The notes beneath the pieces were generated by a model. It saw only the letters and a program-made list of their open reading frames with translations, was not told the DNA's origin and ran no database searches. A stretch of 64,000 bases of DNA from Planctomycetota bacterium (GTDB taxonomy: Bacteria > Planctomycetota > MHYJ01 > WSZJ01). The translations under genes were made by a program, and so were the position numbers. This document shows, piece by piece, positions 4,190 to 47,802 of this stretch; positions within the stretch are counted from its first letter, which is position 1, and the number at the start of each line of letters is the position of its first letter. The stretch lies in NCBI GenBank assembly GCA_038060895.1, contig JBBTCT010000022.1, positions 229,301-293,300 of the forward strand, read 5' to 3'.

Positions 4190-4242
4190 GCGGCCCGCGG
4201 AACCGATCAGGCTTTCGCCGCACGAGCCGCTAACATGAGGGC

Positions 4243-5214
4243 ATGATCCGACTTGCCGCTCTCCTTCTGCCGTTCCTGGCCGGCGTTTCCGCGGCCCAGT
4301 CGCCGGCGACGCAGGTCACTTTCGAGCTGAACGACGCGTTCGTGAAAGGAAAGGCGCTGGAAGGGGTGGAGGTTTCGCTTCAGCGAAGCCCTGAAGGTCC
4401 TGTCGAGCACTCGGGGTTCACGGGCGCGGGCGGTCGCCTGGTGATCATCGTGGAGCCTGGGAAGTGGCTCGTGTCGTACCGGCTGCGCGGATACGTGCCG
4501 GTCGTGCGGAGCGAGACGGACTTTGTCCGCGGTGCGGCGATCGTGACGACGAGCCTGTCGATGAACCTTGAGAGCGAAGGGAGCGACGGCGGCCGCCGGG
4601 TCCGGATGATCCTGAACTGGGGATCCGGCGCTGACCAGGTCCGCGACCTGGATGCGCACGCGCTGTGTGTGTGCGTGCCGGCCAATCCGCACATCTACTA
4701 CCAGGCGAGGATGCACGAGGCCGGTGCGCACGAGGTGTCGCTGGATGTCGACGACCGGGACGGGGGCGGGCCGGAGACGATCACGCTACGGGATCCCACG
4801 CCGGGACAATATCGGTACTTCGTGCACAACTTCAGCGGCGCGCCGGCGCGGCTCGGCGCTTCGGACGCCGTCGTGCGCGTCCTCTCGGGGGACGAACTGA
4901 TCGGGGAATTCCGCGTGCCGCCCGACGTCGCGGAGCGGGTGTGGCGGCCGTTCAAGGCGATCGAAGTGACGCCCGAGGGAAAAGTCTGGATCGTGCCGTT
5001 CGCGGAGTCCGAACTGAAGCGCGCCGAGGACCGGCGGGCACCTGTCGGGACGTCGACGTTCCGGGAACCGGCGGATGAGGAAGGGGCGCCGGTGCGTGCC
5101 GCCGCGCCGGCGAAGAAGGACAACTCCTCTTCCTTCGGGGTCCCGATCGCCGTACTGGTTGTCGTCCTCATCATCCTGGCCGAATTGTTTTTGCGCCGCA
5201 GGCGCGCTTCCTGA
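4243..5214 (+). CDS. secreted, C-terminally membrane-anchored protein with carboxypeptidase-regulatory-like beta-sandwich region
   Basis: Signal peptide 'MIRLAALLLPFLAGVSAAQS'. C-terminal TM segment plus basic stop-transfer 'IAVLVVVLIILAELFLRRRRAS'. Beta-rich middle region. Confidence 0.75.
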   Translation: MIRLAALLLPFLAGVSAAQSPATQVTFELNDAFVKGKALEGVEVSLQRSPEGPVEHSGFTGAGGRLVIIVEPGKWLVSYRLRGYVPVVRSETDFVRGAAIVTTSLSMNLESEGSDGGRRVRMILNWGSGADQVRDLDAHALCVCVPANPHIYYQARMHEAGAHEVSLDVDDRDGGGPETITLRDPTPGQYRYFVHNFSGAPARLGASDAVVRVLSGDELIGEFRVPPDVAERVWRPFKAIEVTPEGKVWIVPFAESELKRAEDRRAPVGTSTFREPADEEGAPVRAAAPAKKDNSSSFGVPIAVLVVVLIILAELFLRRRRAS

Positions 5215-5816: not shown

Positions 5817-6965
5817 ATGGATCATAATGACATGAAACGATATGAGACGGACTTCGACGCCGCCCTGGCGTTCCTCCAGGTCAGCCGCTCCACCCTGAAC
5901 CGCTGGGTCCACGACGGCAAACTCCCCGCCCGAAAGGTCGGCGGCCAGTGGCGCTTCTCCGAAGAAGACCTCACCAGACTCCGCGACGGATCCGGGGAGC
6001 CCGCCCCGCTCGTCCGCGCTCGAGAAGAGCTGAAGACTTTCCTCGAATCCTCACGGGCCAACCGAAAGGGACCGAAAAACATGAACGCCATCGACACGAA
6101 ATCGCAGCCGCTCGCCGAAGCCCTGGTCTGGGAAGCGCACGACCGCAAGGCCTCCGAGCTGCACCTCCAGCCGAGGAAGGACGGCGTCCACATCTCCGTG
6201 GGCAAAGAAGCGCGGCTCGAGACGATCCGCGTCATTCCGGCGGACCTCGCGCGCGAACTCGAGCAGGCATGGGAAGAAATCGGGCTGCCGTTCGGCGACT
6301 CGGGCATCCGCCGGATCTTCCTCAGTCGCGCCGGGGACCAGGCCGTGAACGAAGTCTCCGTGCTACTCCAGGCCATCGACACCCTCCAGGGGCGCCGCGT
6401 CACGCTACGCTTCATGGGCGGCGGCCGCATCGCCGACCTCGATACCGTCGCGCCGAAAGCCGACGACCGCGCCGTCTTCGAGCGCTGGCTCAAGCGCCCC
6501 AACGGGATCATTCTCTTCTCGGGCCCGACCGGCTCCGGCAAGACGACGACGCTCCTCTCCTGCCTTCAGCATCTCGCGAAGGACGCCGGGCTGGCCGTCT
6601 TCAGCCTCGAGTACCCCGCTTATGTCCGCGTCGATGGCGTCGACCAGGTTGAGGTTCCGAGCGAAGACGGCCCGGTCGTCAAGGCCGCGCTCGAGCGCAT
6701 CATGAGGATGTATCCCAACGCGATCGGAATCTGCGTCGAGACCGAAGAAGCCGCCGCGGCCGCGCTGAACATGGCGATCACGGGGCATCTCGTGCTGATG
6801 CAGGTGCATGCAGAAGAGCACGAGGCGGCGGTGAAGCGCCTCGAGCAGCTCGCAGGCAGGCCGGTCGCGCCGTCCGTGATCGGGGTGATCTCGCAGCGGC
6901 TCAAGCGCGGCGACGCGGGCGGGAAGGTGGCTGAGTACCGCTTCTGGGAGCCTGGCGGGAGATAG
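5817..6965 (+). CDS. excisionase/MerR-type HTH fused to a GspE/PilB-like secretion ATPase core
   Basis: HTH is 'FLQVSRSTLNRWVHDGKLPARKVGGQWRFSEEDL'. Walker A is 'GPTGSGKTTT'. His-box-like motif is 'ITGHLVLMQVHA'. An alternative start is ATG 5832. Confidence 0.85.
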   Translation: MDHNDMKRYETDFDAALAFLQVSRSTLNRWVHDGKLPARKVGGQWRFSEEDLTRLRDGSGEPAPLVRAREELKTFLESSRANRKGPKNMNAIDTKSQPLAEALVWEAHDRKASELHLQPRKDGVHISVGKEARLETIRVIPADLARELEQAWEEIGLPFGDSGIRRIFLSRAGDQAVNEVSVLLQAIDTLQGRRVTLRFMGGGRIADLDTVAPKADDRAVFERWLKRPNGIILFSGPTGSGKTTTLLSCLQHLAKDAGLAVFSLEYPAYVRVDGVDQVEVPSEDGPVVKAALERIMRMYPNAIGICVETEEAAAAALNMAITGHLVLMQVHAEEHEAAVKRLEQLAGRPVAPSVIGVISQRLKRGDAGGKVAEYRFWEPGGR

Positions 6966-34717: not shown

Positions 34718-35677
34718 ATGAGTCCCAAAGACGATTCGGAACGCAATACGTTCCGCCGCATCCACAGCGACCTCGTCGATGATTTCGACGAAGAGCTCGA
34801 GCTGGAATCCGAGGACTACGAGCCCGGGGACATTCCGGCGAAGGGGATTTCCGACGCCGAGCGCGTCCTGCGCCGCCGTTATTTCAAGGAGCTCTTCCGG
34901 CTCCAGTCCGACCTGATCAAGATGCAGGACTGGATCGTGCACAAGGGGCTGAAGCTGGTGATTCTCTTTGAAGGGCGCGACGCGGCCGGCAAGGGAGGGC
35001 TGATCAAGCGGATCACGCAGCGCCTGAACCCGCGCGCCCTTCGCGTCGCGGCCCTGCCGGCGCCGACGGACCGGCAGCGGTCGCAGTGGTACTTCCAGCG
35101 CTACGTGGAACACCTGCCGGCGGCGGGCGAAATGGTGCTCTTCGACCGCAGCTGGTACAACCGCGCCGGCGTGGAAAAAGTGATGGGGTTCTGCACGGCG
35201 GCGGAGCTCGAGGAGTTCTACCGGTCGGTGCCGGAATTCGAAAAGATGCTCGTGCGGTCGGGGATCCAGCTCATCAAGTACTGGTTCTCGATCAGCGACG
35301 AAGAGCAGGAGTTCCGGTTCATGTGCCGGACGATGGACCCGATGAAGCAGTGGAAGCTCTCCAAGATGGACCTCGAGTCGCGCCGGCGGTGGGAGGACTA
35401 CACGAAGGCGAAGGAGATGATGCTCGAGCGCACGCACATCCCGGAGGCGCCCTGGTGGGTGGTGATGGCCAACGACAAGAAGCGCGCGCGGCTGAACTGC
35501 ATCCACCACCTGTTGAGCCAGGTGAAGTTCCAGGAAGTGCCGCACACGCCGCTGACGCTGCCGAAGAGGGAGCACCGGGAGGACTACCACCGGAATCCGG
35601 TGCCGAAGAGCATGATCGTCCCGGACGTTTACGGAGAACCCGGAAGTCCTTCGGGTCAGGCTCCGACGGCCGAATGA
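34718..35677 (+). CDS. ppk2: polyphosphate kinase 2
   Basis: 'LVILFEGRDAAGKGGLIKRI', 'WYFQRY', 'LFDRSWYNRAGVE' and 'IKYWFSISDEEQ'. Confidence 0.9.
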   Translation: MSPKDDSERNTFRRIHSDLVDDFDEELELESEDYEPGDIPAKGISDAERVLRRRYFKELFRLQSDLIKMQDWIVHKGLKLVILFEGRDAAGKGGLIKRITQRLNPRALRVAALPAPTDRQRSQWYFQRYVEHLPAAGEMVLFDRSWYNRAGVEKVMGFCTAAELEEFYRSVPEFEKMLVRSGIQLIKYWFSISDEEQEFRFMCRTMDPMKQWKLSKMDLESRRRWEDYTKAKEMMLERTHIPEAPWWVVMANDKKRARLNCIHHLLSQVKFQEVPHTPLTLPKREHREDYHRNPVPKSMIVPDVYGEPGSPSGQAPTAE

Positions 35678-37527
35678 CTCGCGCTGCCGCTCCCGGAGTT
35701 CTCCTCCTGCTGGCCACCTTCGCCTCCGCCCAGACGACGACGGTCCGCGACGCGGACGGGTTCCGGCAGGCGGTGAGGACGGCGAAGCCGGGCGCGAAGA
35801 TCCTCCTTGCGGCAGGGGAGTACGGCGGAGGTTTTTATTTCGAGAACGTGAAGGGCGAATCCGGGAAGCCTGTGACCATCGCCGCCGCGGACCCCGCGCA
35901 CCCGCCCGAGTTCACCGGCGGCGCTTCCGCGATGCACTTCACGGACGCCTGCCACCTCGAGCTGCGCGACGTCACGGTGAAAGGCTCAACCGCCAACGGC
36001 CTCAACTTCGACGACGGCGGCACGTTCGACACGACGTCGCACCACCTAGTCCTCCGCGGGATCAGGGTCACCGACGTCGGCGCGAGAGGCAACGAGGACG
36101 GACTGAAGATGTCGGGCATCCAGGATTTCCGCGTCGAAGACTGCTCGTTCGAGCGCTGGGGCGCGAACGGATCGGGGATCGACATGGTCGGGTGCGTGCG
36201 GGGCGTGATCGAAAATTGCCGCTTCAGCCACCCGGGAGGCTCCAACGGCGTGCAGATGAAGGGGGCCAGCGCCTCCGTATCGGTCCGCAGGTGCCGCTTC
36301 GAGGACGCCGGCTCGCGCGCGATCAACATCGGCGGCAGCACCGGCCTCCCGTTCTTCCGGCCGCCGCTCAAGGAGCCGCCGTTTGCGGAAGCGCGGGACA
36401 TCACGGTCGAAGGAAACACGTTCACGGGGTCGGACTGCCCGGTGGCGTTCGTCGGCGTGGACGGCGCCGTGGTCCGCTACAACACGATCTACCGCCCGCG
36501 GCGCTGGGCGATGCGCATCCTGCAGGAGACGACGGCGGACGGATTCGTGCCGTGCCGCAACGGCGAGTTCAGCCGGAACATCGTAGTTTTCCGGAGCGAC
36601 GCGTGGTCGGAGGGCGGGGTCAATGCAGGCTCCGGGACGGAGCCGTCGAGCTTCAAGTTCGAGGGAAACGCCTGGTTCTGCCTCGACGCCCCGGCGCGGT
36701 CGAAACCCAAACTGCCGGCGGAAGAGATCAAGGGGTTGTACGGGACCGACCCGATGTTCGAGGATCCTGAGAAGGGTGACTTGCGCGTGAGGGCGGCGAG
36801 CCCCATCCGCGACGCGGGGGCTGAGGCGCTTCAGGACTCGCCGGTCGTCTGGCTCGACGATGCGAAAACGGTGAAGATGGAATTCCGCCGCATCAAGGCC
36901 GGGAAGTTCACGATGGGTGCGAAGGAAGGCGCGGACGAAAAGCGGCTGCCGCATTCGGTGACGCTGACGCGGGATTTCCTGATGCAGACCACAGAGGTGA
37001 CGCAGGCGCAGTTCGAGGCGCTGATGGGGTCGAATCCGTCGAAATCGAAAGGCAAGGACCTGCCCGTGGAGCACGTGACGTGGGATGAGTGCCAGGAATT
37101 CGTCGAGAAGCTGAACGTACGCCTCGCAGGATGGGTCGCAAGCCTTCCGACCGAGGCGGAGTGGGAATACGCCTGTGGCGCGGGGTCTGCCGGGAGATGG
37201 GGCAGCGGGAACGACGCGAAACAGCTCCTCGATTACGCCTGGCTCGAGCCGAACTCGGGCGGCAAGACGCACCCGGTCGCGCAGAAGAAGCCGAACGCCT
37301 GGGGACTCCACGACATGCACGGCAACGCGTGGGAGTGGTGCGCCGACTGGTACGGCCCCTTCCGCGGCGACGAAATCGACCCCAAAGGCCCCGAAACCGG
37401 CGTCGCACGCTGCCTGCGCGGCGGGAGCTGGACCAGCCTCGCTACCCACGCGCGGTCGGCCCACAGCCTGTGGTGCGCGCCGGACTACCGAATGGAAGAA
37501 GCGGGGTTCCGGGTGCTCCTCAAATAG
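35674..37527 (+). CDS. secreted right-handed beta-helix domain fused to FGE-sulfatase (SUMF1) domain
   Basis: The ATG overlaps the ppk2 stop (ATGA). Signal peptide 'LLLLATFASAQ'. The C-terminal domain has 'VTQAQFEALMG', 'VTWDECQEFVEKLN', 'LPTEAEWEYACGAG', 'PNAWGLHDMHGNAWEWCADWY', 'RGGSW' and 'GFRVLLK'. Confidence 0.85.
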   Translation: MTRAAAPGVLLLLATFASAQTTTVRDADGFRQAVRTAKPGAKILLAAGEYGGGFYFENVKGESGKPVTIAAADPAHPPEFTGGASAMHFTDACHLELRDVTVKGSTANGLNFDDGGTFDTTSHHLVLRGIRVTDVGARGNEDGLKMSGIQDFRVEDCSFERWGANGSGIDMVGCVRGVIENCRFSHPGGSNGVQMKGASASVSVRRCRFEDAGSRAINIGGSTGLPFFRPPLKEPPFAEARDITVEGNTFTGSDCPVAFVGVDGAVVRYNTIYRPRRWAMRILQETTADGFVPCRNGEFSRNIVVFRSDAWSEGGVNAGSGTEPSSFKFEGNAWFCLDAPARSKPKLPAEEIKGLYGTDPMFEDPEKGDLRVRAASPIRDAGAEALQDSPVVWLDDAKTVKMEFRRIKAGKFTMGAKEGADEKRLPHSVTLTRDFLMQTTEVTQAQFEALMGSNPSKSKGKDLPVEHVTWDECQEFVEKLNVRLAGWVASLPTEAEWEYACGAGSAGRWGSGNDAKQLLDYAWLEPNSGGKTHPVAQKKPNAWGLHDMHGNAWEWCADWYGPFRGDEIDPKGPETGVARCLRGGSWTSLATHARSAHSLWCAPDYRMEEAGFRVLLK

Positions 37528-37826
37528 ACATCATTTCTCCGGTGACCACTCCACCGGCGTTTTCACCGCTTCCTTGATCGCGTCCCACTCCTTCGGCGTC
37601 ATGTTCATGCGCTCGGCGCGGCTTGTCGTTTCGCGAATTTGGCAAAGCCGTCCGCCGGCATGATCGAGTTAGACGGAGTGCATCCCGATGAAGAGATCCT
37701 CGCCCAGGCCGCGCTCGCCGGCGAAGGCAAGGGTGCGTGCCTTGAAGGCGCGCTCAAGTTCCTTGGCGGAAAATGAACCGGGCATGACGTCCCGCAGCGA
37801 ATGAGCCGTGCTACGATCCGCCCGCG

Positions 37827-38663
37827 ATGACCATGCTGCGCGTCATGACGTACAACATCCTCGAGGGCGCGAACGACCGCCTCGACGTGGTCGCCTCGGT
37901 CGTGCGCGCGGCGGACCCGGACGTGCTCGGCGTCACCGAGGCGAACGGGTTCGAGGACCCGAAGCGGCTGAAGGAAGTCGAGAAGGCGTTCGGGATGAAG
38001 GGTGTCGTGGGGCATGCGAAGAGCGGTTTCCACGTCGCAATTTTCACGAAGCCGGCGTGGACCGTCGAGGCCAGCGGGTCCGAGTTCTACCCGTTTTTTC
38101 ACGCGGCGCTCTGGGCGAAGCTGCGGTTCGACAAGGACCGCCACTTCACCGCCGTCGTCGCCCACCTCAATCCGTTCAGCCCGGATGAGCGCCTCGCGGA
38201 AGTCCGGGCCCTGTGCCGTCACGCGGCGCCCAAGGAGCGCGCCGTCCTGATGGGAGACTTCAACTGCATGGCTCCCGGAGACGAGATCGACCAGAGCGTC
38301 CTCGAACTCCCGCGCAACATCCTGGCGCGCTTCATCAAGGAGGCCGGCGACCCCGTCGAGTTCGACCGCCGCGAGATCGCGCTCGCCGAGTGGGCGGGGT
38401 TCGTGGACGTTTACCGGAAAATGGTCCCGAAGAAACCGGGGTGGACGCTCATGACGACGCGGTTCGGCGCGGCGCTCCGGTCGCGAATGCGCATCGACTA
38501 CATGCTGGCGACTCCGGGGATGTCGAAGCGCGCGACTTCGTCGGAGGTCATCGAGACGAACGAGTCGCGGCGCGCGAGCGACCACTACCCGCTGATGGCG
38601 ACGTTCGACATGCGCGGGATGGGGACGGGGAAGTCGGAAAAGTGGATACCGCTTGAAAAGTAG
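37827..38663 (+). CDS. endonuclease/exonuclease/phosphatase (EEP) family protein
   Basis: 'LRVMTYNILEG', 'LMGDFN' and 'ASDHYPLMATF'. Confidence 0.85.
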   Translation: MTMLRVMTYNILEGANDRLDVVASVVRAADPDVLGVTEANGFEDPKRLKEVEKAFGMKGVVGHAKSGFHVAIFTKPAWTVEASGSEFYPFFHAALWAKLRFDKDRHFTAVVAHLNPFSPDERLAEVRALCRHAAPKERAVLMGDFNCMAPGDEIDQSVLELPRNILARFIKEAGDPVEFDRREIALAEWAGFVDVYRKMVPKKPGWTLMTTRFGAALRSRMRIDYMLATPGMSKRATSSEVIETNESRRASDHYPLMATFDMRGMGTGKSEKWIPLEK

Positions 38664-38696
38664 AGGCTTGCCATCCTGGAGGAAAGGCGGTAGCCC

Positions 38697-40808
38697 ATGA
38701 GACTTCATGGAACATTCACGGCGCTCGCGCTCATCGCCTTCGTCGCCGGCTGCGGGGGAAGCGCCGACCATGCCGACCCGGGGGAAACGGACTTGAGCGC
38801 GGACCCGCATCTCTGGCTTGAAGACGTCTACGGCGAGAAAGCGCTCGATTGGGTGCGCGCGCAGAACGCCGTGAGCCAGAAGGAGCTCGAGGCGCTGCCG
38901 GAATTCGAGCCGACGCGGAAGCGGCTTCTGGCGATCTACGATTCGCGGGAGCGGATTCCGCACGTGGGGAAGCGGGGGAAGTGGTTCTACAACTTCTGGC
39001 GCGATGCGAAGAACGTGCGCGGCGTGTGGCGGCGGACGACGCTGGACGAGTACCGCAAGGCGGCGCCGGCGTGGGAGACGGTGATCGACGTCGACCAGCT
39101 CGCGGCCGCGGAGAACGAGAATTGGGTCTGGCAGGGGACGCACTTCCTCGAGCCGGGTTGGGAGCGCTGCATGGTCCAGCTCTCGCGCGGCGGGCTGGAC
39201 GCGAGCGTGTGGCGCGAGTTTGACGTCGTGAAGAAGGAATTCGTGGCTGGCGGGTTCGCGGTGCCGGAGGCGAAGAGCTGGGTCGCGTGGCGCGACATCG
39301 ACACGATCTACGTCGGGACCGATTTCGGCCCGGGGTCAATGACGACATCCGGGTACACGCGCATCGGCAAGGAGTGGAAGCGCGGGACGCCGCTGGCGGA
39401 GGCGCGGACGGTCTTTGAGGGGACGGTGGACGACGTCAACGCGGACATCACGGTCATCCACGATCACGGCCGCACGTACGAGCTGGCGTCGCGCTCGCCG
39501 ACGTTTTTCACGGACGAGATGTTCGTGCGCCGGGGGGACGAGTTCGTGCGCATCGAGAAGCCGGCTGACACCCGACTCCGCTTCTTCGGCGACGCGGCGC
39601 TGTTCGAGCCGCGCACGGACTGGACCGTCGGCGGGAAGACGTGGCCCGCCGGCACGCTCCTTTCGACGGACTTCGACTCCTGGATGAGGGGCGAACGCAA
39701 CCTCGTCCCCGTCTTCGAGCCCACGGCGCGCGCTTCGCTGAGCAGCATCCATTCGACGAAGAGCTGCCTGATCCTGAACATCCTCGAGAATGTCCGCAGC
39801 CGCCCCGTTCTTCTGCACCTTGAAAAGGGAGCCTGGAAACGCACGCCCCTCGAGGTGCCGGAGATCGGCGTCGTGGGCGCGCACGGCGTTGACCCGGACG
39901 AGAACGACGACTACTTCCTGGACGTGACCAGCTTCCTCACGCCGTCCAGCCTGTGGATGGGGACCGTCGGGAAACCGGGGCGCGAAAAGTTGAAGAGTCT
40001 CCCGGAGTATTTCGAGGCCGACGGTCTCGAGATCCAGCAGTTCGAGGTCAAGTCGAAGGACGGCACGCGCGTCCCGTACTTCCAGGTCAGCCGCAAGGGC
40101 CTCGCGCTCGACGGCTCGAATCCCACCCTTCTCTACGGCTACGGCGGCTTCGAAATCTCCATGCTCCCTTCCTACAACTCCGGCCTCGGAGCCTCCTGGC
40201 TCGAGCGCGGCGGCGTCTACGTCCTTTCCAACATCCGCGGCGGCGGCGAGTTCGGCCCCGCGTGGCACAACGCCGTGCGAAAGGAGAACCGGCAGCTCGC
40301 CTACGACGACTTCATCGCGATCGCCGAGGACCTCATCGCGCGCAAGGTCTCATCCCCGCGCCACCTCGGCATCTCAGGCCGCTCGAACGGCGGCCTCCTC
40401 ATGGGCGCCATTCTCACCCAGCGCCCGGAACTCTTCCGCGCCGTCGTCTGCGGGAATCCGCTTCTCGACATGAAGCGTTACCACAAGCTGCTGGCCGGCG
40501 CGAGCTGGATGGACGAGTACGGCGACCCCGACAAGCCGGAGGAGTGGGCGTACATTTCGAAGTTCTCGCCGTACCAGAACCTGCGCAAGGAGCGGACGTA
40601 CCCGCGCGTGCTGTTCACGACGTCGACGAGGGACGACCGCGTCCACCCCGGCCACGCGAGGAAGATGTTCGCGCGCATGCAGGAGCAGGGCCATGACGCC
40701 CTCTACTACGAGAACATCGAGGGAGGGCACGGGTCGGCGGCGAACAACAAGCAGTCGGCCTTCATGGAAGCGCTGGCGTATGCGTTCCTGTGGAAGGAGC
40801 TGAAGTGA
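38697..40808 (+). CDS. prolyl oligopeptidase (S9A) family serine peptidase, lipoprotein
   Basis: Lipobox 'FVAGCGG'. Nucleophile elbow 'GISGRSNGGLLMG'. Also 'TSTRDDRVHPGHARKM' and 'IEGGHGS'. Confidence 0.9.
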   Translation: MRLHGTFTALALIAFVAGCGGSADHADPGETDLSADPHLWLEDVYGEKALDWVRAQNAVSQKELEALPEFEPTRKRLLAIYDSRERIPHVGKRGKWFYNFWRDAKNVRGVWRRTTLDEYRKAAPAWETVIDVDQLAAAENENWVWQGTHFLEPGWERCMVQLSRGGLDASVWREFDVVKKEFVAGGFAVPEAKSWVAWRDIDTIYVGTDFGPGSMTTSGYTRIGKEWKRGTPLAEARTVFEGTVDDVNADITVIHDHGRTYELASRSPTFFTDEMFVRRGDEFVRIEKPADTRLRFFGDAALFEPRTDWTVGGKTWPAGTLLSTDFDSWMRGERNLVPVFEPTARASLSSIHSTKSCLILNILENVRSRPVLLHLEKGAWKRTPLEVPEIGVVGAHGVDPDENDDYFLDVTSFLTPSSLWMGTVGKPGREKLKSLPEYFEADGLEIQQFEVKSKDGTRVPYFQVSRKGLALDGSNPTLLYGYGGFEISMLPSYNSGLGASWLERGGVYVLSNIRGGGEFGPAWHNAVRKENRQLAYDDFIAIAEDLIARKVSSPRHLGISGRSNGGLLMGAILTQRPELFRAVVCGNPLLDMKRYHKLLAGASWMDEYGDPDKPEEWAYISKFSPYQNLRKERTYPRVLFTTSTRDDRVHPGHARKMFARMQEQGHDALYYENIEGGHGSAANNKQSAFMEALAYAFLWKELK

Positions 40809-40827
40809 ATCGAGGCTGGTTGCAGCA

Positions 40828-41241
40828 GTGAGCACGAAGCCACAATTTCCATGTCCGTGTTGTGGATACGTCGTGTTTTTCGAGCGTCCGGGTAACTACG
40901 AAATTTGCCCGATCTGTTTCTGGGAAGACGACCTCGTTCAACTTCGTGACCCGCGGTTTCCAGGGGGCGCCAACAAATCCAGCCTGGTGGATGCGCAGCA
41001 GAACTGCATTTTGGAAGGTGCCATGGAATCCCGATTCAAGGGGAATGTCCGCAAGCCGCGACCTACCGACGAACAGGATCCGCATTGGCGGCCGGTCAAC
41101 CTCGAGAAGGACAACCTGGAGCAGTGCCTGCCTGAAGGGGTCTTCCCTGCCCGAGCTTCCGATTCGCCGGCGCGAGATTTCAGGTGTTCGACTGCCCCCG
41201 CCGCGGCATCATGCCTGCAACCTCTCAGCCGGAGAATTGCC
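40828..41241 (+). CDS. CPCC-family cysteine-rich protein; no in-frame stop before the next gene
   Basis: 'FPCPCCGYVVFFERPGNYEICPICFWEDD'. The ORF reads straight on into the signal peptide of the next gene (the track shows one 377-aa ORF). Confidence 0.5.
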
Positions 41242-41961
41242 ATGCGCGTTTGCCTCGTTCTCGCCTTCGTCGGCATCGCCGCTTCCCTCGCTGCCGCCCA
41301 GGACTCGAAGCCCGACGTCTCCGAAAACGCCTGGCTCGACTACGACGTCGCTTCGCTCAAGAACGGCGAGTGGGTGAAACTGAAACTCGACCGCGACGGG
41401 GAGAAGCCTCTGGAGTACCGGCTGTCGTGCGTGGGGCTGGAAGCGGAGGTGGTCTGGATCGAGGAGGACCGGACGACGGTGGAGTCGTTCCCGGGGACGG
41501 TGATCCTGTGCTCGGTGGGGTTGAAGGACCGGAAGGTGAAGCGCGCGTTCTGGGGGAAGCCGGGTGAGAAGGGCCGGGAGCTGAACCTGACGCGGCGGAT
41601 TTTGCCGGATCCGGGCAACGACGCGGCGAAGGGGACTGCGGAAGTGACCGCGGGCAAGGTGACGATCAAGGGAAAGGAGCACGTCACCGAGAAAATCGAA
41701 ATCAAGGTGGAGATCGAGGGGTTCGGCGCGCCGATCAAGACGAAGCAGGTGATCGTCCTTGCAGCCGAGATCCCATTCCCGCTGGCGATGGACGAGAAGG
41801 GCAACTGCCGCGCGAGCATTTCGGAGGGGAAGATCGAATGGAAGGGGAAGCCGACGTGGAAGGGCGGGGTGGTGACGCTTCAATTTGAGGGCGGAACGAA
41901 GTCGACGCTGTCGCTTGTGGACTGGGGGGCGGACGCGAAGGCGACGTTGTTCAAGCCCTAG
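41242..41961 (+). CDS. secreted hypothetical protein
   Basis: Internal start 'MRVCLVLAFVGIAASLAAAQ' is a signal peptide. The body is Lys/Glu/Val-rich and beta-type. Confidence 0.6.
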   Translation: MRVCLVLAFVGIAASLAAAQDSKPDVSENAWLDYDVASLKNGEWVKLKLDRDGEKPLEYRLSCVGLEAEVVWIEEDRTTVESFPGTVILCSVGLKDRKVKRAFWGKPGEKGRELNLTRRILPDPGNDAAKGTAEVTAGKVTIKGKEHVTEKIEIKVEIEGFGAPIKTKQVIVLAAEIPFPLAMDEKGNCRASISEGKIEWKGKPTWKGGVVTLQFEGGTKSTLSLVDWGADAKATLFKP

Positions 41962-43285: not shown

Positions 43286-43426
43286 AGCATCGTACGCGCG
43301 GGGCTGCTGTCGCGCGAGTGGCAGGGGGAATAGTCGCCGGAACGCTCAGCCGAGATCGTATAAAATAAGTACTCTGCGCTGCTTAATGATATGCGTGGCT
43401 GGAGTCTGACGCACAGCGAATTTCAA

Positions 43427-43447
43427 CGGGATTATGCACTTGACAAA
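43427..43447. repeat. left terminal inverted repeat CGGGATTATGCACTTGACAAA
   Basis: Exact reverse complement of 45542-45562. Confidence 0.95.
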
Positions 43448-43522
43448 CTTAAAATCCATGAACGAAACTCGTACAGGCATCATGGTTTGCGTCGATTATG
43501 GCCCCGCGATTAAACGAATAAG

Positions 43523-43557
43523 AAAATCGCCAGAGTCCCGTTTCAGGACGCGATTTT
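43523..43557 (-). terminator. intrinsic-terminator-like hairpin after the 42-aa ORF
   Basis: AAAATCGC...GCGATTTT, with inner GTCC/GGAC pairing. On the minus strand it is followed by TTTTCTTATT. Confidence 0.5.
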
Positions 43558-43573
43558 GGCCCGCGACGAGGAT

Positions 43574-43702
43574 TCAGGACTTACGGCGAGGTTTCCCGGC
43601 CTTCTTAGCCCGCTTCAGGGGGGGTGTAGCGAGGGCCTTCCGGATCATGGCGTCGAAGTCCACGCGGGTCACTTCTCGGTGGCTCTCTGGCTTGGGTTTC
43701 AT
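43574..43702 (-). CDS. small basic protein (42 aa), IS cargo
   Basis: 'MKPKPESHREVTRVDFDAMIRKALATPPLKRAKKAGKPRRKS'. SD AAGGAG lies 8 nt upstream and a terminator hairpin lies downstream. The ORF is below the track's size cutoff. Confidence 0.45.
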   Translation of the reverse strand: MKPKPESHREVTRVDFDAMIRKALATPPLKRAKKAGKPRRKS

Positions 43703-43749
43703 CTATCTATCTCCTTGGGGGTTATCAGGCTGATTCCCCTAGAAAGTAT

Positions 43750-43778
43750 TTGACAGCGTCTGCGGCGCAGCTTAGGAT
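43750..43778 (+). promoter_or_regulatory. sigma-70-like promoter TTGACA-N17-TAGGAT
   Basis: -35 at 43750-43755, -10 at 43773-43778. ATG 43786 starts 7 nt after the -10, a leaderless geometry. Confidence 0.5.
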
Positions 43779-43785
43779 TTCCCAG

Positions 43786-44175
43786 ATGCGAAGGAACAAC
43801 AAGATCGTGAGCCTTGGAGAGGAAATCGCGGCGAAGCGCCGGGAGCTGGCGGCGCTTGAGGCCGAACTTGACATCGAAGTCAGGCGGTATAGCGGTGGTC
43901 ATGCGAAGGCTCCACAAGCGGTGGTGACACCGCCTAGACCTGCGGACCCTGAAGAGGTCCTTCTGAGTGATGCCATCATCGCTGGCAAGGTGGTGCCTCT
44001 CTTGGACAGGGAGCCGGATCGGGTGTTCACCGTGGATGATATCACAAGATTGACCGGAGTGCCGCGCCACCTTCTGGTGATGTCTATCGGGCGCATGGTG
44101 CGCTGGCACAAGGTCCACAAAGTGGAAGCTGGCAAGTACAAGGCATCCACGGTTAAGAAAGCGATGGAGGGATAA
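43786..44175 (+). CDS. IS cargo protein: coiled-coil N-terminus + possible winged-helix C-terminus
   Basis: 'MRRNNKIVSLGEEIAAKRRELAALEAELD...FTVDDITRLTGVPRHLLVMSIGRMVRWHKVHKVEAGKYK'. The track starts it at TTG 43750, which coincides with the -35 box. Confidence 0.6.
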   Translation: MRRNNKIVSLGEEIAAKRRELAALEAELDIEVRRYSGGHAKAPQAVVTPPRPADPEEVLLSDAIIAGKVVPLLDREPDRVFTVDDITRLTGVPRHLLVMSIGRMVRWHKVHKVEAGKYKASTVKKAMEG

Positions 44176-44182
44176 AGAAAAA

Positions 44183-44203
44183 CCCTCGGTCGTTGGCCGA
44201 GGG
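44183..44203. other. hairpin CCCTCGG-N7-CCGAGGG between the cargo ORF and the first tRNA
   Basis: Read directly. An A-run lies on the + side and a T-run on the - side, so a terminator function would be leftward only. It could instead be a processing or stability element. Confidence 0.4.
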
Positions 44204-44215
44204 TGTACGTCGGTT

Positions 44216-44307
44216 GGAGAGGTGTCCGAGTGGCTTATGGTGCTGGTTTCCAAAACCAGTGAACGGTGGTGACACACCGTCCGAGGGTTCGACTCCCTCC
44301 CTCTCCG
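44216..44307 (+). tRNA. type II tRNA, Ser-like body (G73, long variable arm), anticodon CCA
   Basis: Manual cloverleaf. Acceptor GGAGAGG/CCTCTCC. D-arm TCC-GAGTGGCTTAT-GGT. Anticodon stem CTGGT/ACCAG with loop TTCCAAA. 23-nt variable arm (ACGGTG-GTGACA-CACCGT). T-arm GAGGG-TTCGACT-CCCTC. Discriminator G. No encoded CCA end. Confidence 0.8.
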
Positions 44308-44325
44308 TTTTGCTGTTCTGAGGCT

Positions 44326-44420
44326 GGCCGGGTGGCGGAACTGGTTTACGCGCCCGACTTGGAATCGGGTGGTTGTCTCTTGACGGGGGCACCATGCGGG
44401 TTCGAATCCCGTCCCGGTCA
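44326..44420 (+). tRNA. type II tRNA, Leu-like body (A73, GGCGGAAYTGGT D-arm), anticodon UGG
   Basis: Manual cloverleaf. Acceptor GGCCGGG/CCCGGTC (one G.U pair). D-arm GCG-GAACTGGTTTA-CGC. Anticodon stem CCCGA/TCGGG with loop CTTGGAA. ~26-nt variable arm. T-arm GCGGG-TTCGAAT-CCCGT. Discriminator A. Confidence 0.75.
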
Positions 44421-44484
44421 GTCTCATTTTTGAAAGATCGAAGCGCCTTTGCGAAGTGCTTGAGGCTGGCGCGTGTCAAAAGAA

Positions 44485-44528
44485 TACAACAAGACTGGGT
44501 GCGTGTCAACTTGCGAAATTGACGCACC
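44485..44528 (-). terminator. hairpin plus T-rich tract downstream of the transposase
   Basis: GGTGCGT(GT)CAA-N9-TTGACGCACC (44498-44528). On the minus strand it is followed by CAGTCTTGTTGTATTCTTTTG. Confidence 0.45.
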
Positions 44529-44541
44529 GCGCCAACTCTGA

Positions 44542-45495
44542 CTAGCGCTTCACATCCCGCTTTGGCGCTTCCAGAGTGAGGCGTTTTCCTTCGGTGCGCT
44601 GGATCGCGTCGAGCATCTTCGCCCCGTCTGACTTCTTCCGGTTGTTGAACGTCCAGAGGTAGGAATCGAGGTACTTCGGAAGGTAGTCATGCCCAACGCC
44701 GTGGAAGATGCCCACGATGGAAGTCTTGAAGTTGGCGAAGAGGCCCTCAACGCCGTTCGTCGTGACGTCCCCACGGGCGTACTCTTCGATGGAGTGGTTG
44801 ACGGTTTCATGCTTCACCATCATCCGCCCTGGCGTGACGTACAGCTTGGATTCGTCTGAGTGAAGCACCGTCCGCTTGGGATCAACGTTCTTCATTACGA
44901 AGCGGCGGATGTCCCGCGCGTTGGCCTTGGGCGCTGGCTTGACGACGGCACGCGCGGACCCTCCACGCTGAACCAGCGCCAGCACGGTTGACTTCTTCAC
45001 GGCCTTGCCACGGCGCGATCCGCGCCCCTTGTGGCCGAAGTAGGTTTCGTCCGCTTCGATGATCCCGGCGAGTGGTGACTTGTCGGAGTTCTGGAGAGCG
45101 TGGCGCACCCGATGGCAGAGAAACCACGCGGTGCGATAACTGCCGAGTTCAAGGTGCCGCTGGATTGCCAGCGCCGAGATTCCTGTCTTGCTGGACGAAA
45201 TGAGGTAGAAGGCCAGCAGCCACTTGTTGAGCGGGATGTGGCTGTCCTCGAAGATCGTGCCAACGGTGCAAGTGAACTGCTTCCGGCACGCCACGCAGAA
45301 CAGCAGCCCCTTGCGAATCTTCTTCTCCGCGTCTGGCTTGAGCCGGGCGACCTTCTCGCGTTCGGTGCAGCCACAGTGCGGGCAAACGGGGCCAGAGGGC
45401 CAGCGCACCGCTTCGATGTAGTTACGCGCGGCGTCCTCGTCTGGGAAGAGAGAGAAGATGTTCGTCAGGCTCACGGCATCGGGCGTCGGGATCAT
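44542..45495 (-). CDS. IS1595-family (ISXO2-like) DDE transposase with N-terminal zinc ribbon
   Basis: 'RWPSGPVCPHCGC...LLFCVACRKQFTCTVGTIFEDSHIPLNKWLLAFYL', 'DETYFG', 'VLHSDESKLY' and 'TNGVEGLFANFK'. SD AAGGAG. Confidence 0.92.
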   Translation of the reverse strand: MIPTPDAVSLTNIFSLFPDEDAARNYIEAVRWPSGPVCPHCGCTEREKVARLKPDAEKKIRKGLLFCVACRKQFTCTVGTIFEDSHIPLNKWLLAFYLISSSKTGISALAIQRHLELGSYRTAWFLCHRVRHALQNSDKSPLAGIIEADETYFGHKGRGSRRGKAVKKSTVLALVQRGGSARAVVKPAPKANARDIRRFVMKNVDPKRTVLHSDESKLYVTPGRMMVKHETVNHSIEEYARGDVTTNGVEGLFANFKTSIVGIFHGVGHDYLPKYLDSYLWTFNNRKKSDGAKMLDAIQRTEGKRLTLEAPKRDVKR

Positions 45496-45520
45496 GGGCG
45501 TCTCCTTTGAGTACGCCTAA

Positions 45521-45549
45521 AAGATACTAGATCATGCTTGTTTTGTCAA
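45521..45549 (-). promoter_or_regulatory. transposase promoter candidate, -35 TTGACA inside the right IR, N17, -10 TATCTT
   Basis: Minus-strand reading gives TTGACA (45549-45544), a 17-nt spacer and TATCTT (45526-45521). Confidence 0.5.
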
Positions 45550-45562
45550 GTGCATAATCCCG
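45542..45562. repeat. right terminal inverted repeat TTTGTCAAGTGCATAATCCCG
   Basis: Exact reverse complement of 43427-43447. Confidence 0.95.
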
Positions 45563-45721
45563 ATTTCAAGCTTAACATTATGATATTAAATAAGTTATGA
45601 CACATTGTCTGCAACGGTTCATTCGGCACGTGCGTTGCAATTCAATCTTGACGCGACCTGATCAACGAACGGTTGCGGCCTTCACTTCCCAAACAACAAC
45701 TCACCGATCGGAGAACGACCC

Positions 45722-46811: not shown

Positions 46812-47162
46812 ATGACGACAAGTTCCCTGCCGACGCCGACGGGCGAATCCGTTCCCATGACCAGCTTCCCGGCCTCTGCGCTCAAGAACTCCGCTGCGGA
46901 TGTCCTGGAGATGGTCCTGACCTCCGGCGCCGTTGTCATCACCCGACACGGCAAGGAGAAGGCCGTGATCCTGTCCGTCGAAGCCTACCGGCGACTCGTG
47001 GCTTCCCGCCGCGACGACCTGGACGTTCTACGCGCAAAATTCGGCGGGCTGCTAGCCAGAATGCAGACTCCCGCTGCGCGAAAGGGCGCACGGGCCGCCT
47101 TCGACGCTTCGCCGGATGAAATGGGCAAAGCAGCCGTAAAGGCGGCGCGCCGCCGTGGCTGA
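46812..47162 (+). CDS. Phd/YefM-type antitoxin
   Basis: 'SALKNSAADVLEMVLTSGAVVITRHGKEKAVILSVEAYRRL'. SD AGGAGG. It overlaps the toxin gene by 8 nt. Confidence 0.75.
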   Translation: MTTSSLPTPTGESVPMTSFPASALKNSAADVLEMVLTSGAVVITRHGKEKAVILSVEAYRRLVASRRDDLDVLRAKFGGLLARMQTPAARKGARAAFDASPDEMGKAAVKAARRRG

Positions 47163-47802
47163 CCGCCGCGCCGTCATCACCGTGCTCGCCGGCACGAATG
47201 GCGCCGGCAAGAGCAGCATTGCAGGAGCCACGATTCGTTCGCGCCAGGCGGACTACTACAACCCTGACGAAGCGGCGCGCGCTCACAAGGAAGCGCATCC
47301 GGAGGCGACTGCCGAAGAAGCGAACGCCGCTGCGTGGGAATTCGGCCGCCGCATGCTCGAAGAGGCCGCTCGTGAGCGGAAGAACTTCGCCTTTGAAACG
47401 ACACTGGGCGGCAACACGATCATGTTTCTTCTTGAGAATGCAGCGAATTCCGGTTTGGACGTGCGGATCTGGTACACCGGACTTGCTTCAGTCGAGTTGC
47501 ACCTCAAACGCGTCCGGCAACGGGTCCGCCTGGGAGGTCACGACATTCCCGAGGAAATGATCCGGCGCCGCTATGAGAACGGGCCCCGGAACCTGATCCG
47601 CCTCATGCCGAAGCTCGCCTCGCTGCGCGTCTACGACAACAGTGCCGCAGGGGATCCCGCCGCGGGAGTGGCTCCGAAACCAGTTCTTGTTCTGCAGATG
47701 GAAAAGGGCCGAATTGCCGGGCCGAAGGATCTGTCCCGGACTTCCGAATGGGCGAAATCGATCGTCGCGCGGGCCATGGAACTTCACTCGGCGCCCAGGT
47801 AG
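47155..47802 (+). CDS. zeta-toxin-family P-loop kinase
   Basis: '[15 protein letters not shown]' (Walker A) and 'FAFETTLGG'. About 215 aa. GTG start. Confidence 0.75.

Follow-up and report, generated by a model that had tools for sequence, protein, structure and literature searches.

A Leu-type tRNA with a proline anticodon, carried by an IS1595-family element, is a candidate missense suppressor

Natural tRNAs that break the codon table are rare and are mostly known as isolated curiosities. Allo-tRNAs are defined by a 12-bp acceptor branch (8/4 or 9/3), a tRNASec-like D arm and Ser or Ala identity. They have been reported near toxin-antitoxin systems and one transposon-related open reading frame (ORF), and Ser-identity allo-tRNAs with Leu anticodons insert serine and are lethal to E. 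coli on induction (Mukai et al. 2017, NAR, PMC5389517). The Leu-derived class II nev-tRNAs are charged solely with leucine and decode GGG as leucine in vitro (Hamashima et al. 2012, NAR, PMC3333845). The tRNAProX/ProRSx systems of Streptomyces and Kitasatospora put an Ala, Asn or Thr anticodon on a Pro body and place proline at other codons (PMC10404621; review, PMC11415595), showing that bacteria maintain dedicated mistranslation genes (PMC10404621). Here we analyze a 64-kb stretch of DNA (the window) from a Planctomycetota metagenome-assembled genome (MAG). It contains an IS1595-family element that carries two class II tRNAs, a Ser-type body with the anticodon CCA (tRNA1) and a Leu-type body with the proline anticodon UGG (tRNA2). 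We estimate an about even chance that tRNA2 is a functional missense suppressor, charged by leucyl-tRNA synthetase (LeuRS), that inserts leucine at proline codons and travels as cargo of the element.

tRNA2 has a Leu-type body and a UGG anticodon

ARAGORN called only two tRNA genes in the window, at 44215-44308 (cca) and 44325-44421 (tgg). The second corresponds to tRNA2 (44326-44420, plus strand), which matched Rfam RF00005 end to end (model positions 1-71) with 55.5 bits against a gathering threshold of 29 bits (E = 3.1e-9 for the window) and zero non-standard pairs. It scored 87.2 bits against the family model R1, and its minimum-free-energy fold was the same cloverleaf. The 7-bp acceptor stem (GGCCGGG/CCCGGTC, with a G2:U71 wobble) and the 5-bp T stem, both of which covary, form a canonical 7/5 arrangement, and discriminator A73 lies at 44420. 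The linker U8 G9 is followed by the D arm GCGG-AACTGGTTTA-CGC, an anticodon stem (CCCGA/TCGGG) enclosing the loop CTTGGAA (C32 U33 U34 G35 G36 A37 A38; anticodon UGG at 44359-44361), a variable region of 26 nt and the T arm GCGGG-TTCGAAT-CCCGT. The 3′ CCA is not encoded. Thus, ARAGORN, Rfam and the predicted fold confirmed the original prediction of a Leu-type class II tRNA with UGG and A73. The alternative fold with a different anticodon for which that prediction had allowed is unsupported because the anticodon-stem pairs covary in relatives, with compensatory changes at 5/5 pairs of this register.

Two further structural features had been proposed, and each held in part. The very long variable arm is real but unexceptional, since variable regions in the tRNA family described below range from 15 to 32 nt and about half are of a long form with shared architecture. 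An extension of the acceptor helix in the precursor is present but comprises six pairs rather than two and lacks family-wide conservation. The 5′ leader (44320-44325, plus strand) can pair with 44420-44425, A73 included, for a precursor acceptor helix of up to 13 bp, and the segment 44320-44426 folds at -54.8 kcal/mol (z = -3.4). Four such pairs were found in the closest relative, sister element L002, and none in other members. The ARAGORN model includes an optional eighth pair, U-1:A73, with the T stem still at 5 bp.

Identity determinants for LeuRS and prolyl-tRNA synthetase (ProRS), which are E. coli-type sets, were taken from PMC9976931. tRNA2 contains the LeuRS determinants A73, A15:U48, G18G19 and U54:A58; its anticodon, UGG, is neither of the Leu forms (NAG or YAA). 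Among ProRS determinants, it has G35, G36 and A73, and it lacks G72 (it has G1:C72), G15:C48 (A15:U48) and G37 (A37). The variable arm also differs from the short variable loop of tRNAPro. Judged by sequence, these rules point to LeuRS over ProRS for tRNA2. A blastn search found no match in E. coli genomes and only weak, partial matches in phages and plasmids, of which the few annotated ones were tRNA-Leu, so the isotype assignment rests on identity elements and not on database similarity. LeuRS, seryl-tRNA synthetase (SerRS) and alanyl-tRNA synthetase (AlaRS) are the three synthetases that are blind to the anticodon.

Leu-type tRNA(UGG) genes form a family under structural selection

A pattern combining the Leu-type D arm with the CTTGGAA loop was searched in public data. 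It matched one locus in 185,579 species genomes (a proteobacterial MAG), 48 loci in JGI metagenomes, mostly from peat, bog, forest soil, groundwater and sediment, and one contig in IMG/VR. Seven loci (five distinct sequences: L020/L054, L031/L061, L037, L045 and L062) were discarded as non-tRNAs. The resulting family comprises 34 distinct sequences, the window copy and 33 from other genomes and metagenomes.

All 34 sequences have 7/7 acceptor pairs, 4-5/5 T-stem pairs, the A15:U48 pair of Leu type and A73. When 31 of them were aligned, 98.3% of cells were paired, compared with 76% in shuffled alignments and 40 to 51% when partners were slid. Changes on both sides were seen at 18/23 pairs, and 0/500 shuffles reached the observed values. 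A73, U48, A14, A15 and U8 were invariant in 31/31 sequences; A73 and U48 lie outside the search pattern. Structural selection on the family is clear. The original prediction had considered that tRNA2 might be a decayed fragment, and the existence of 33 further variants under such selection, with this level of pairing and compensatory change, argues against that idea.

The covariation extends to the elbow of the tRNA. G18:U55 is replaced by A18:G55 in nine of the 31 aligned members (L002, L018, L024, L033, L035, L041, L044, L049 and L053) with perfect correlation (alignment A5, columns 19 and 85). Because this contact covaries, with A18 accompanied by G55 in 9/9 cases, a preserved L shape is favored. 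A18:G55 constitutes an alternative D-loop/T-loop elbow contact, and some of the genes that have it are missed by ARAGORN and Rfam. About 70% of family members have U at -1, the residue that RNase P prefers.

Element L002 encodes the closest transposase (P0003; 75% identity) and shares with the window element its inverted repeat, a homologue of the upstream gene ORF129 (47 to 52% identical) and homologues of both RNAs. Its tRNA2 homologue keeps the cloverleaf and an identical CTTGGAA loop and differs by compensatory changes, four of them in the anticodon stem and one in the acceptor stem. This homologue is evident by alignment despite being missed by ARAGORN and Rfam, which fail because A18/G55 replace G18/U55. 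The tRNA1 homologue of L002 has degenerated, and its CCA loop is gone. Between tRNA and transposase, L002 also holds about 840 bp of additional cargo (5960-6700, minus strand), with ORFs of 160 and about 76 amino acids (aa).

In a tblastn search with the window transposase, about 25 loci with sufficiently long contigs had a relative (36 to 44% identity) at a distance of 100 to 300 nt from the tRNA, mostly in convergent orientation. Loci with tRNA and transposase on one strand include L017, L063 and L094. Inverted repeats and target-site duplications enclose the tRNA in the window element and in L002, L025, L036, L050 and L053. In L014, a hairpin (CACCGCTAG...CTAGCGGTG) with TCTTGGAAC in its loop lies just 3′ of the Leu-type tRNA(UGG) (4211-4245). 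The loop represents a second copy of the anticodon loop and may be due to chance.

The IS1595-family element and its passengers

Both tRNAs are passengers of an IS1595-family element of 2,136 bp (43427-45562), which is single-copy in its host genome. It is bounded by perfect 21-nt terminal inverted repeats, CGGGATTATGCACTTGACAAA on the left (43427-43447, plus strand) and its match on the right (45542-45562, minus strand), which also holds a promoter-like site for the transposase. These were the only two copies of the repeat in the window, with 0 expected by chance. The flanking target-site duplication ATTTCAA (43420-43426 and 45563-45569), read from the sequence, is 7 bp long, compared with 8 bp in L002, L025, L036, L050 and L053; 8 bp is the norm for the IS1595 family. 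Between the repeats lie, in order, a small basic 42-aa ORF (43574-43702, minus strand), a promoter, ORF129, a hairpin, tRNA1, tRNA2, a minus-strand promoter-like site and the transposase gene. The 42-aa ORF is divergent from ORF129, is called as a gene in L001 and has its DNA conserved with L002. The transposase (44542-45495, minus strand; 317 aa) is convergent with the tRNAs and contains the Pfam domains DDE_Tnp_IS1595 (2.3e-29) and, N-terminally, Zn_ribbon_IS1595 (5e-12). The IS1595 transposase originally noticed beside tRNA2 was therefore verified, although the position of both tRNAs within the insertion sequence (IS), as its cargo together with a winged-helix gene, had been overlooked. No synthetase gene was found inside the element. 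G+C content at the element is 0.587, compared with 0.62 to 0.71 in most of the window (0.56 to 0.71 overall).

ORF129 (43786-44175, plus strand) lies directly 5′ of the tRNAs, has an N-terminal coiled coil and a C-terminal winged helix and is called as a gene in public assemblies. The AlphaFold2 model consists of a long N-terminal helix followed by the winged helix, which in Foldseek matched Zalpha, SelB SECIS-binding, Rpa2 and many transcription factor winged helices. A word-indexed search of 5.8 billion proteins returned one homologue, and an exhaustive profile search returned nine weak relatives; remote homologues match Pfam AbiEi_4, an antitoxin/regulator domain. Most family loci have an ORF of 130 to 230 aa just 5′ of the tRNA on the same strand. 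Pfam did not recognize such ORFs in ten further members of the family, and a hidden Markov model found L014 only. By-eye inspection of the C termini hints at a winged-helix gene in most tRNA-bearing elements, an assignment to which Pfam and the hidden Markov model gave no confirmation.

ORF129, on the same strand as the tRNAs, is probably cotranscribed with them. A sigma-70-like promoter (TTGACA-17-TAGGAT; 43750-43778, plus strand; a consensus match only) precedes ORF129 and the tRNAs. The hairpin between ORF129 and tRNA1 (44182-44204, minus strand) has a T tract on the minus strand only, so it would halt antisense transcripts and let sense transcripts pass into the tRNAs. This arrangement is repeated in L002 and L014 but is unsupported as a family feature, since terminators upstream of the tRNA were antisense in 5/33 loci and sense in 6/33. 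A second sigma-70-like consensus match (44481-44509, minus strand) is aimed back into the tRNAs and could produce an antisense RNA. Such antisense sites occur in 12/34 related loci, compared with 3/34 on the sense strand, a moderate enrichment.

This antisense enrichment is one of several observations that would fit a tRNA-shaped noncoding RNA acting outside decoding, for example, as a regulator of the transposase through antisense overlap, as a decoy or substrate of tRNA enzymes, as a ligand of the winged-helix protein or as an uncharged A-site trigger of the stringent response. In many relatives a mere 13 nt or so separate the transposase stop codon from the 3′ end of the tRNA, which means that transcripts must overlap. 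The conserved architecture of the long variable arms could serve as a platform for protein, the winged helix of ORF129 is as close to RNA-binding (SelB, Zalpha) as to DNA-binding ones, and the D and T loops of L002 and eight other members are noncanonical. There is also precedent in allo-tRNA(UAU) variants and G-1 tRNAs that were unused in E. coli translation (Mukai et al., PMC5389517). Against these points, every feature needed for aminoacylation and the ribosome is kept: the 7/5 arms, the 7-nt anticodon loop, U8, A14, A58, A73 and the covarying elbow. The orientation of tRNA and transposase is variable, antisense terminators are not family-wide, and transposase mRNAs contain no conserved site for the anticodon-loop target UUCCAA, the matches past the stop codon being the tRNA's own antisense. 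We therefore consider a noncoding role, in all of these forms taken together, unlikely.

The companion tRNA1 (44216-44307, plus strand; ARAGORN; 48.8 bits in Rfam) lies upstream of tRNA2 with a gap of 18 nt and has an anticodon for Trp codons. It has the complete bacterial Ser set (G73, G1-C72, G2-C71, G4-C69, C11-G24, G30-C40 and a large variable arm), with one mismatch in the D stem (U10.U25), and is 74 to 76% identical by blastn to annotated phage tRNA-Ser genes. The anticodon loops of tRNA1 and tRNA2 are complementary over 6 nt (UUCCAA/UUGGAA), and the original prediction had seen in the complementary anticodons a hint of a paired function. No relative retains the pairing: second tRNAs in related elements have UGG, CGC or irregular loops, and the CCA partner is unique to the window element. 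The paired function was rejected on this ground.

The same pair of tRNAs bears on whether tRNA2 is a decaying or accidental hitchhiker, that is, a captured tRNALeu with a mutated anticodon and no function, its complementarity to tRNA1 being due to chance or loop-loop pairing. The single copy of the element in this genome, the D-stem mismatch of tRNA1 and the degenerate state of its L002 counterpart would be in keeping with this. For tRNA2 it is contradicted by the 34 variants with their pervasive compensatory changes and invariant identity bases, by linked transposases that are just 36 to 44% identical to one another and by the recovery of UGG independently of the search pattern (see below); the occurrence of the CCA/UGG pairing in the window only also speaks against it. 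A hitchhiker is thus very improbable for tRNA2 and possible for tRNA1.

Because the pattern had fixed the anticodon loop, IS1595 loci were also sampled by transposase only (six Logan/NCBI neighborhoods and 80 IMG/VR loci). UGG appeared again in this sample. Two tandem IS copies (L065, 4044-4119, and L066; GCA_964621525.1), whose terminal repeat is that of the window element, carry a class I tRNA of 76 nt. Its body is Arg(CCG)-like, its loop UCUGGAA (C33, A37) presents UGG, its T loop is UCCGAGU, it has A73, and its CCA is encoded; LeuRS, SerRS or AlaRS identity does not explain this tRNA. L094 has a Leu-type tRNA with the loop CCUGGAA (UGG). Outside the transposase-only sample, the second, pattern-independent tRNA copy in L018 has UGG with C33. 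Other loci have other anticodons: L101 (IMGVR_UViG_3300036760_000229, minus strand, 4595-4668 and 5130-5211) encodes a Leu-type UUA tRNA and an Arg-like ACC tRNA, L118 (1422-1517) a Ser-type tRNA with UAU (Ile) and L132 (5214-5284) a G3:U70 tRNA with AUG (His). Thus, UGG with A37 recurs on different bodies, yet other anticodons occur too. By sequence type, the mismatched bodies borne by IS1595 elements are mostly those of LeuRS, SerRS and AlaRS, as selection for mistranslation would predict.

Several mismatched or irregular tRNAs lie near IS1595 transposases. In L101, the class II Leu-type UUA tRNA would be an ochre (UAA) suppressor, and the class I Arg-like ACC tRNA corresponds to Gly codons. 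L047 (1255-1325) has an irregular 71-nt G3:U70 tRNA with the anticodon CCA, and L044 (oriented 1032-1106) has a class I tRNA with CGC and no G3:U70. In L123 (5149-5331), 2.5 kb from an IS1595 transposase, the acceptor, D arm and T arm are of Leu type (45.9 bits with model R1), and there are insertions of 73 nt in the anticodon region and 35 nt in the variable region.

The recurrence of UGG with A37 A38 on unrelated bodies, including the Arg-like class I body, which LeuRS, SerRS and AlaRS would not be expected to charge, raises the alternative that ProRS charges tRNA2, alone or in competition with LeuRS. tRNA2 would then be an extra, oddly shaped tRNAPro(UGG). According to PMC9976931, methylation of G37 in tRNAPro keeps frameshift errors down. 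With A37 in place of G37, tRNA2 cannot carry m1G37, so such a mimic could tend to slip into the +1 frame at CCN codons rather than cause amino acid substitutions. G35, G36 and A73 are ProRS determinants (PMC9976931), and A73 is present in all members. However, C72, A15:U48 and A37 remove three E. coli ProRS determinants, the Leu-specific features are strictly conserved, and ProRS charging does not account for other IS1595-borne chimeras, in which unrelated anticodons sit on bodies of Leu, Ser or Ala type. We judge this alternative quite unlikely.

Other members of the lineage carry different cargo. Transposases 46 to 50% identical to that of the window (L012, L013, L064, L067/L068 and L069) are accompanied by a large N6_Mtase (type IIG-like) protein with ParE, by PycTM next to a 290-aa ORF or by PIN. 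The IS1595 lineage thus seems to specialize in conflict-system passengers. The transposases also bear on the idea of a private code in which their Pro codons are meant as Leu, restricting activity to cells that express the tRNA. Such a code would explain why the IS keeps this tRNA, although it is an idea only. When 15 carrier transposases were aligned with 116 relatives, which came from the transposase search and whose cargo was mostly uninspected, no conserved-Leu column became Pro in carriers, and columns enriched for Pro in carriers were variable or charged in the comparison set. The private code was rejected for want of a signature in this alignment and is extremely improbable.

Outside the element, 1.2 kb beyond its right end (46812-47802), the gene for a 116-aa Phd/YefM antitoxin overlaps that for a 215-aa Zeta-toxin/AAA_33 protein; together with the IS, this pair looks like a small mobile or conflict island. 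The region 35086-41961, which encodes a beta-helix/FGE-sulfatase protein, a prolyl oligopeptidase (S9) and a CPCC cysteine-rich protein, is ordinary chromosomal context unrelated to the element.

Proposed decoding by tRNA2 and comparison with known systems

If tRNA2 is a LeuRS-charged suppressor, the ORF129 promoter would drive its expression together with that of the winged-helix gene and tRNA1. RNase P, acting with U at -1, and 3′ trimming would then mature the transcript, followed by CCA addition, a step proposed because no CCA is encoded. Host LeuRS, being blind to the anticodon, would charge the product with leucine. Leucylated tRNA2 would rival the true tRNAPro at CCN codons (chiefly CCA and CCG), placing leucine where proline is specified, and tRNA1 would likewise place serine at UGG (Trp) codons. 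The nev-tRNAs (PMC3333845) and allo-tRNAs (PMC5389517) set precedents for charging that follows the body, for use of the products by ribosomes and for toxicity on induction. Expression is expected to be normally low because such substitutions are damaging; the winged-helix protein may act as an autorepressor, perhaps alongside an antisense transcript. The module could be a conditionally toxic conflict cargo, like the restriction, Pycsar-like or toxin cargo of sister IS1595 elements, or else a stress-inducible mistranslation device, and might in this way benefit the element or its host.

Several observations weigh against the insertion of leucine by tRNA2. A20a, listed as important for E. coli LeuRS, is absent: alignment column 23, which by our own numbering we take to be D-loop position 20a, is T in the window copy only and A in the other 30/31 aligned members. 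The presence of G35, G36 and A73 means that ProRS could compete for the tRNA, especially an anticodon-reliant ProRS of the eukaryote/archaeon-like type. The 13-bp potential precursor helix might hinder RNase P, and the A18:G55 elbow makes the L002 homologue unrecognizable to ARAGORN and Rfam. C33 in place of U33 in several of the UGG tRNAs sampled without bias should weaken decoding, and the class I UGG tRNA of L065 has no obvious anticodon-independent identity (no G3:U70). Finally, since the pattern fixed the anticodon loop, the 33 pattern-derived hits are uninformative on anticodon conservation, on which only the transposase-based samples bear. The Pro-to-Leu reading through LeuRS that had been predicted for tRNA2 is favored by the identity elements as a whole, with the missing A20a and the ProRS bases on the other side. 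Its recurrence in dozens of related elements from soil and peat bacteria makes tRNA2 look like a selected, mobile code-misreading device and not a broken gene.

A broader proposal is tentative and, in our estimation, somewhat unlikely: IS1595 elements may mobilize tRNA effectors that are silenced by a winged-helix protein and possibly by antisense RNA and that, once derepressed by phage or stress, would recode Pro, Trp, stop, Ile, Gly and His codons. In that case the tRNA itself would serve as the toxin, in a module resembling abortive infection or addiction that crosses phyla.

The Leu-body/Pro-anticodon tRNA described here is a conserved cross-phylum family carried by one IS family, and other Ser, Leu and Ala mismatches travel likewise. 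If these tRNAs are active, ambiguity of the genetic code can pass from one bacterium to another on mobile elements, conflict or stress modules can have a tRNA as their effector, and annotation pipelines mislabel such genes as tRNA-Pro or tRNA-Trp. With its long variable arms and A18:G55 elbow, the family also offers natural, anticodon-flexible Leu-type scaffolds for genetic-code engineering.

Full-text literature searches found no paper tying IS1595 or IS passengers to suppressor or mistranslating tRNAs and no description of a bacterial Leu-type tRNA with a Pro anticodon. What appears to be new is a canonical 7/5, Leu-identity family of putative missense-suppressor tRNAs as a defined passenger of IS1595 elements. 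The allo-tRNAs and 'irregular tRNAs' of soil Acidobacteria and their relatives are among the closest known systems: they too are bacterial tRNAs with long variable arms from soil and peat metagenomes, and their Ser or Ala identity elements are at odds with very diverse anticodons. tRNA2 shares with allo-tRNAs the mismatch between identity and anticodon (a Leu body with UGG) and the association with mobile or toxin-antitoxin genes (IS1595, with Phd/Zeta 1.2 kb away). It differs in having a 7/5 Leu-type structure in place of 8/4 or 9/3 and in lying inside an IS1595 element bounded by inverted repeats and target duplications, beside a winged-helix gene. The allo-tRNA paper (PMC5389517) does not mention UGG or Pro anticodons, LeuRS or IS1595.

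The nev-tRNAs (PMC3333845) are likewise class II, derived from tRNALeu and equipped with anticodons other than Leu or Ser (Gly and Ile in their case), and by analogy they set a direct functional precedent for a Leu body that bears a foreign anticodon. They are nematode nuclear genes located off mobile elements and have other anticodons, whereas the host of tRNA2 is a member of the Planctomycetota and its relatives come from bacterial MAGs and soil metagenomes. The tRNAProX are dual-identity mistranslating tRNAs of soil bacteria that are toxic in E. coli, and some are non-U33, as are several IS1595-borne UGG tRNAs. Their logic is reversed, however; they are class I tRNAs, their genes lie beside one for a special isoform of ProRS, and they do not travel as IS cargo. 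The element itself resembles other IS1595 sequences with passengers in its DDE_Tnp_IS1595 and Zn ribbon domains, terminal inverted repeats and extra internal genes; their target duplications are about 8 bp long, compared with 7 bp here. It differs from them in that the passenger is one or two tRNAs and a small winged-helix protein.

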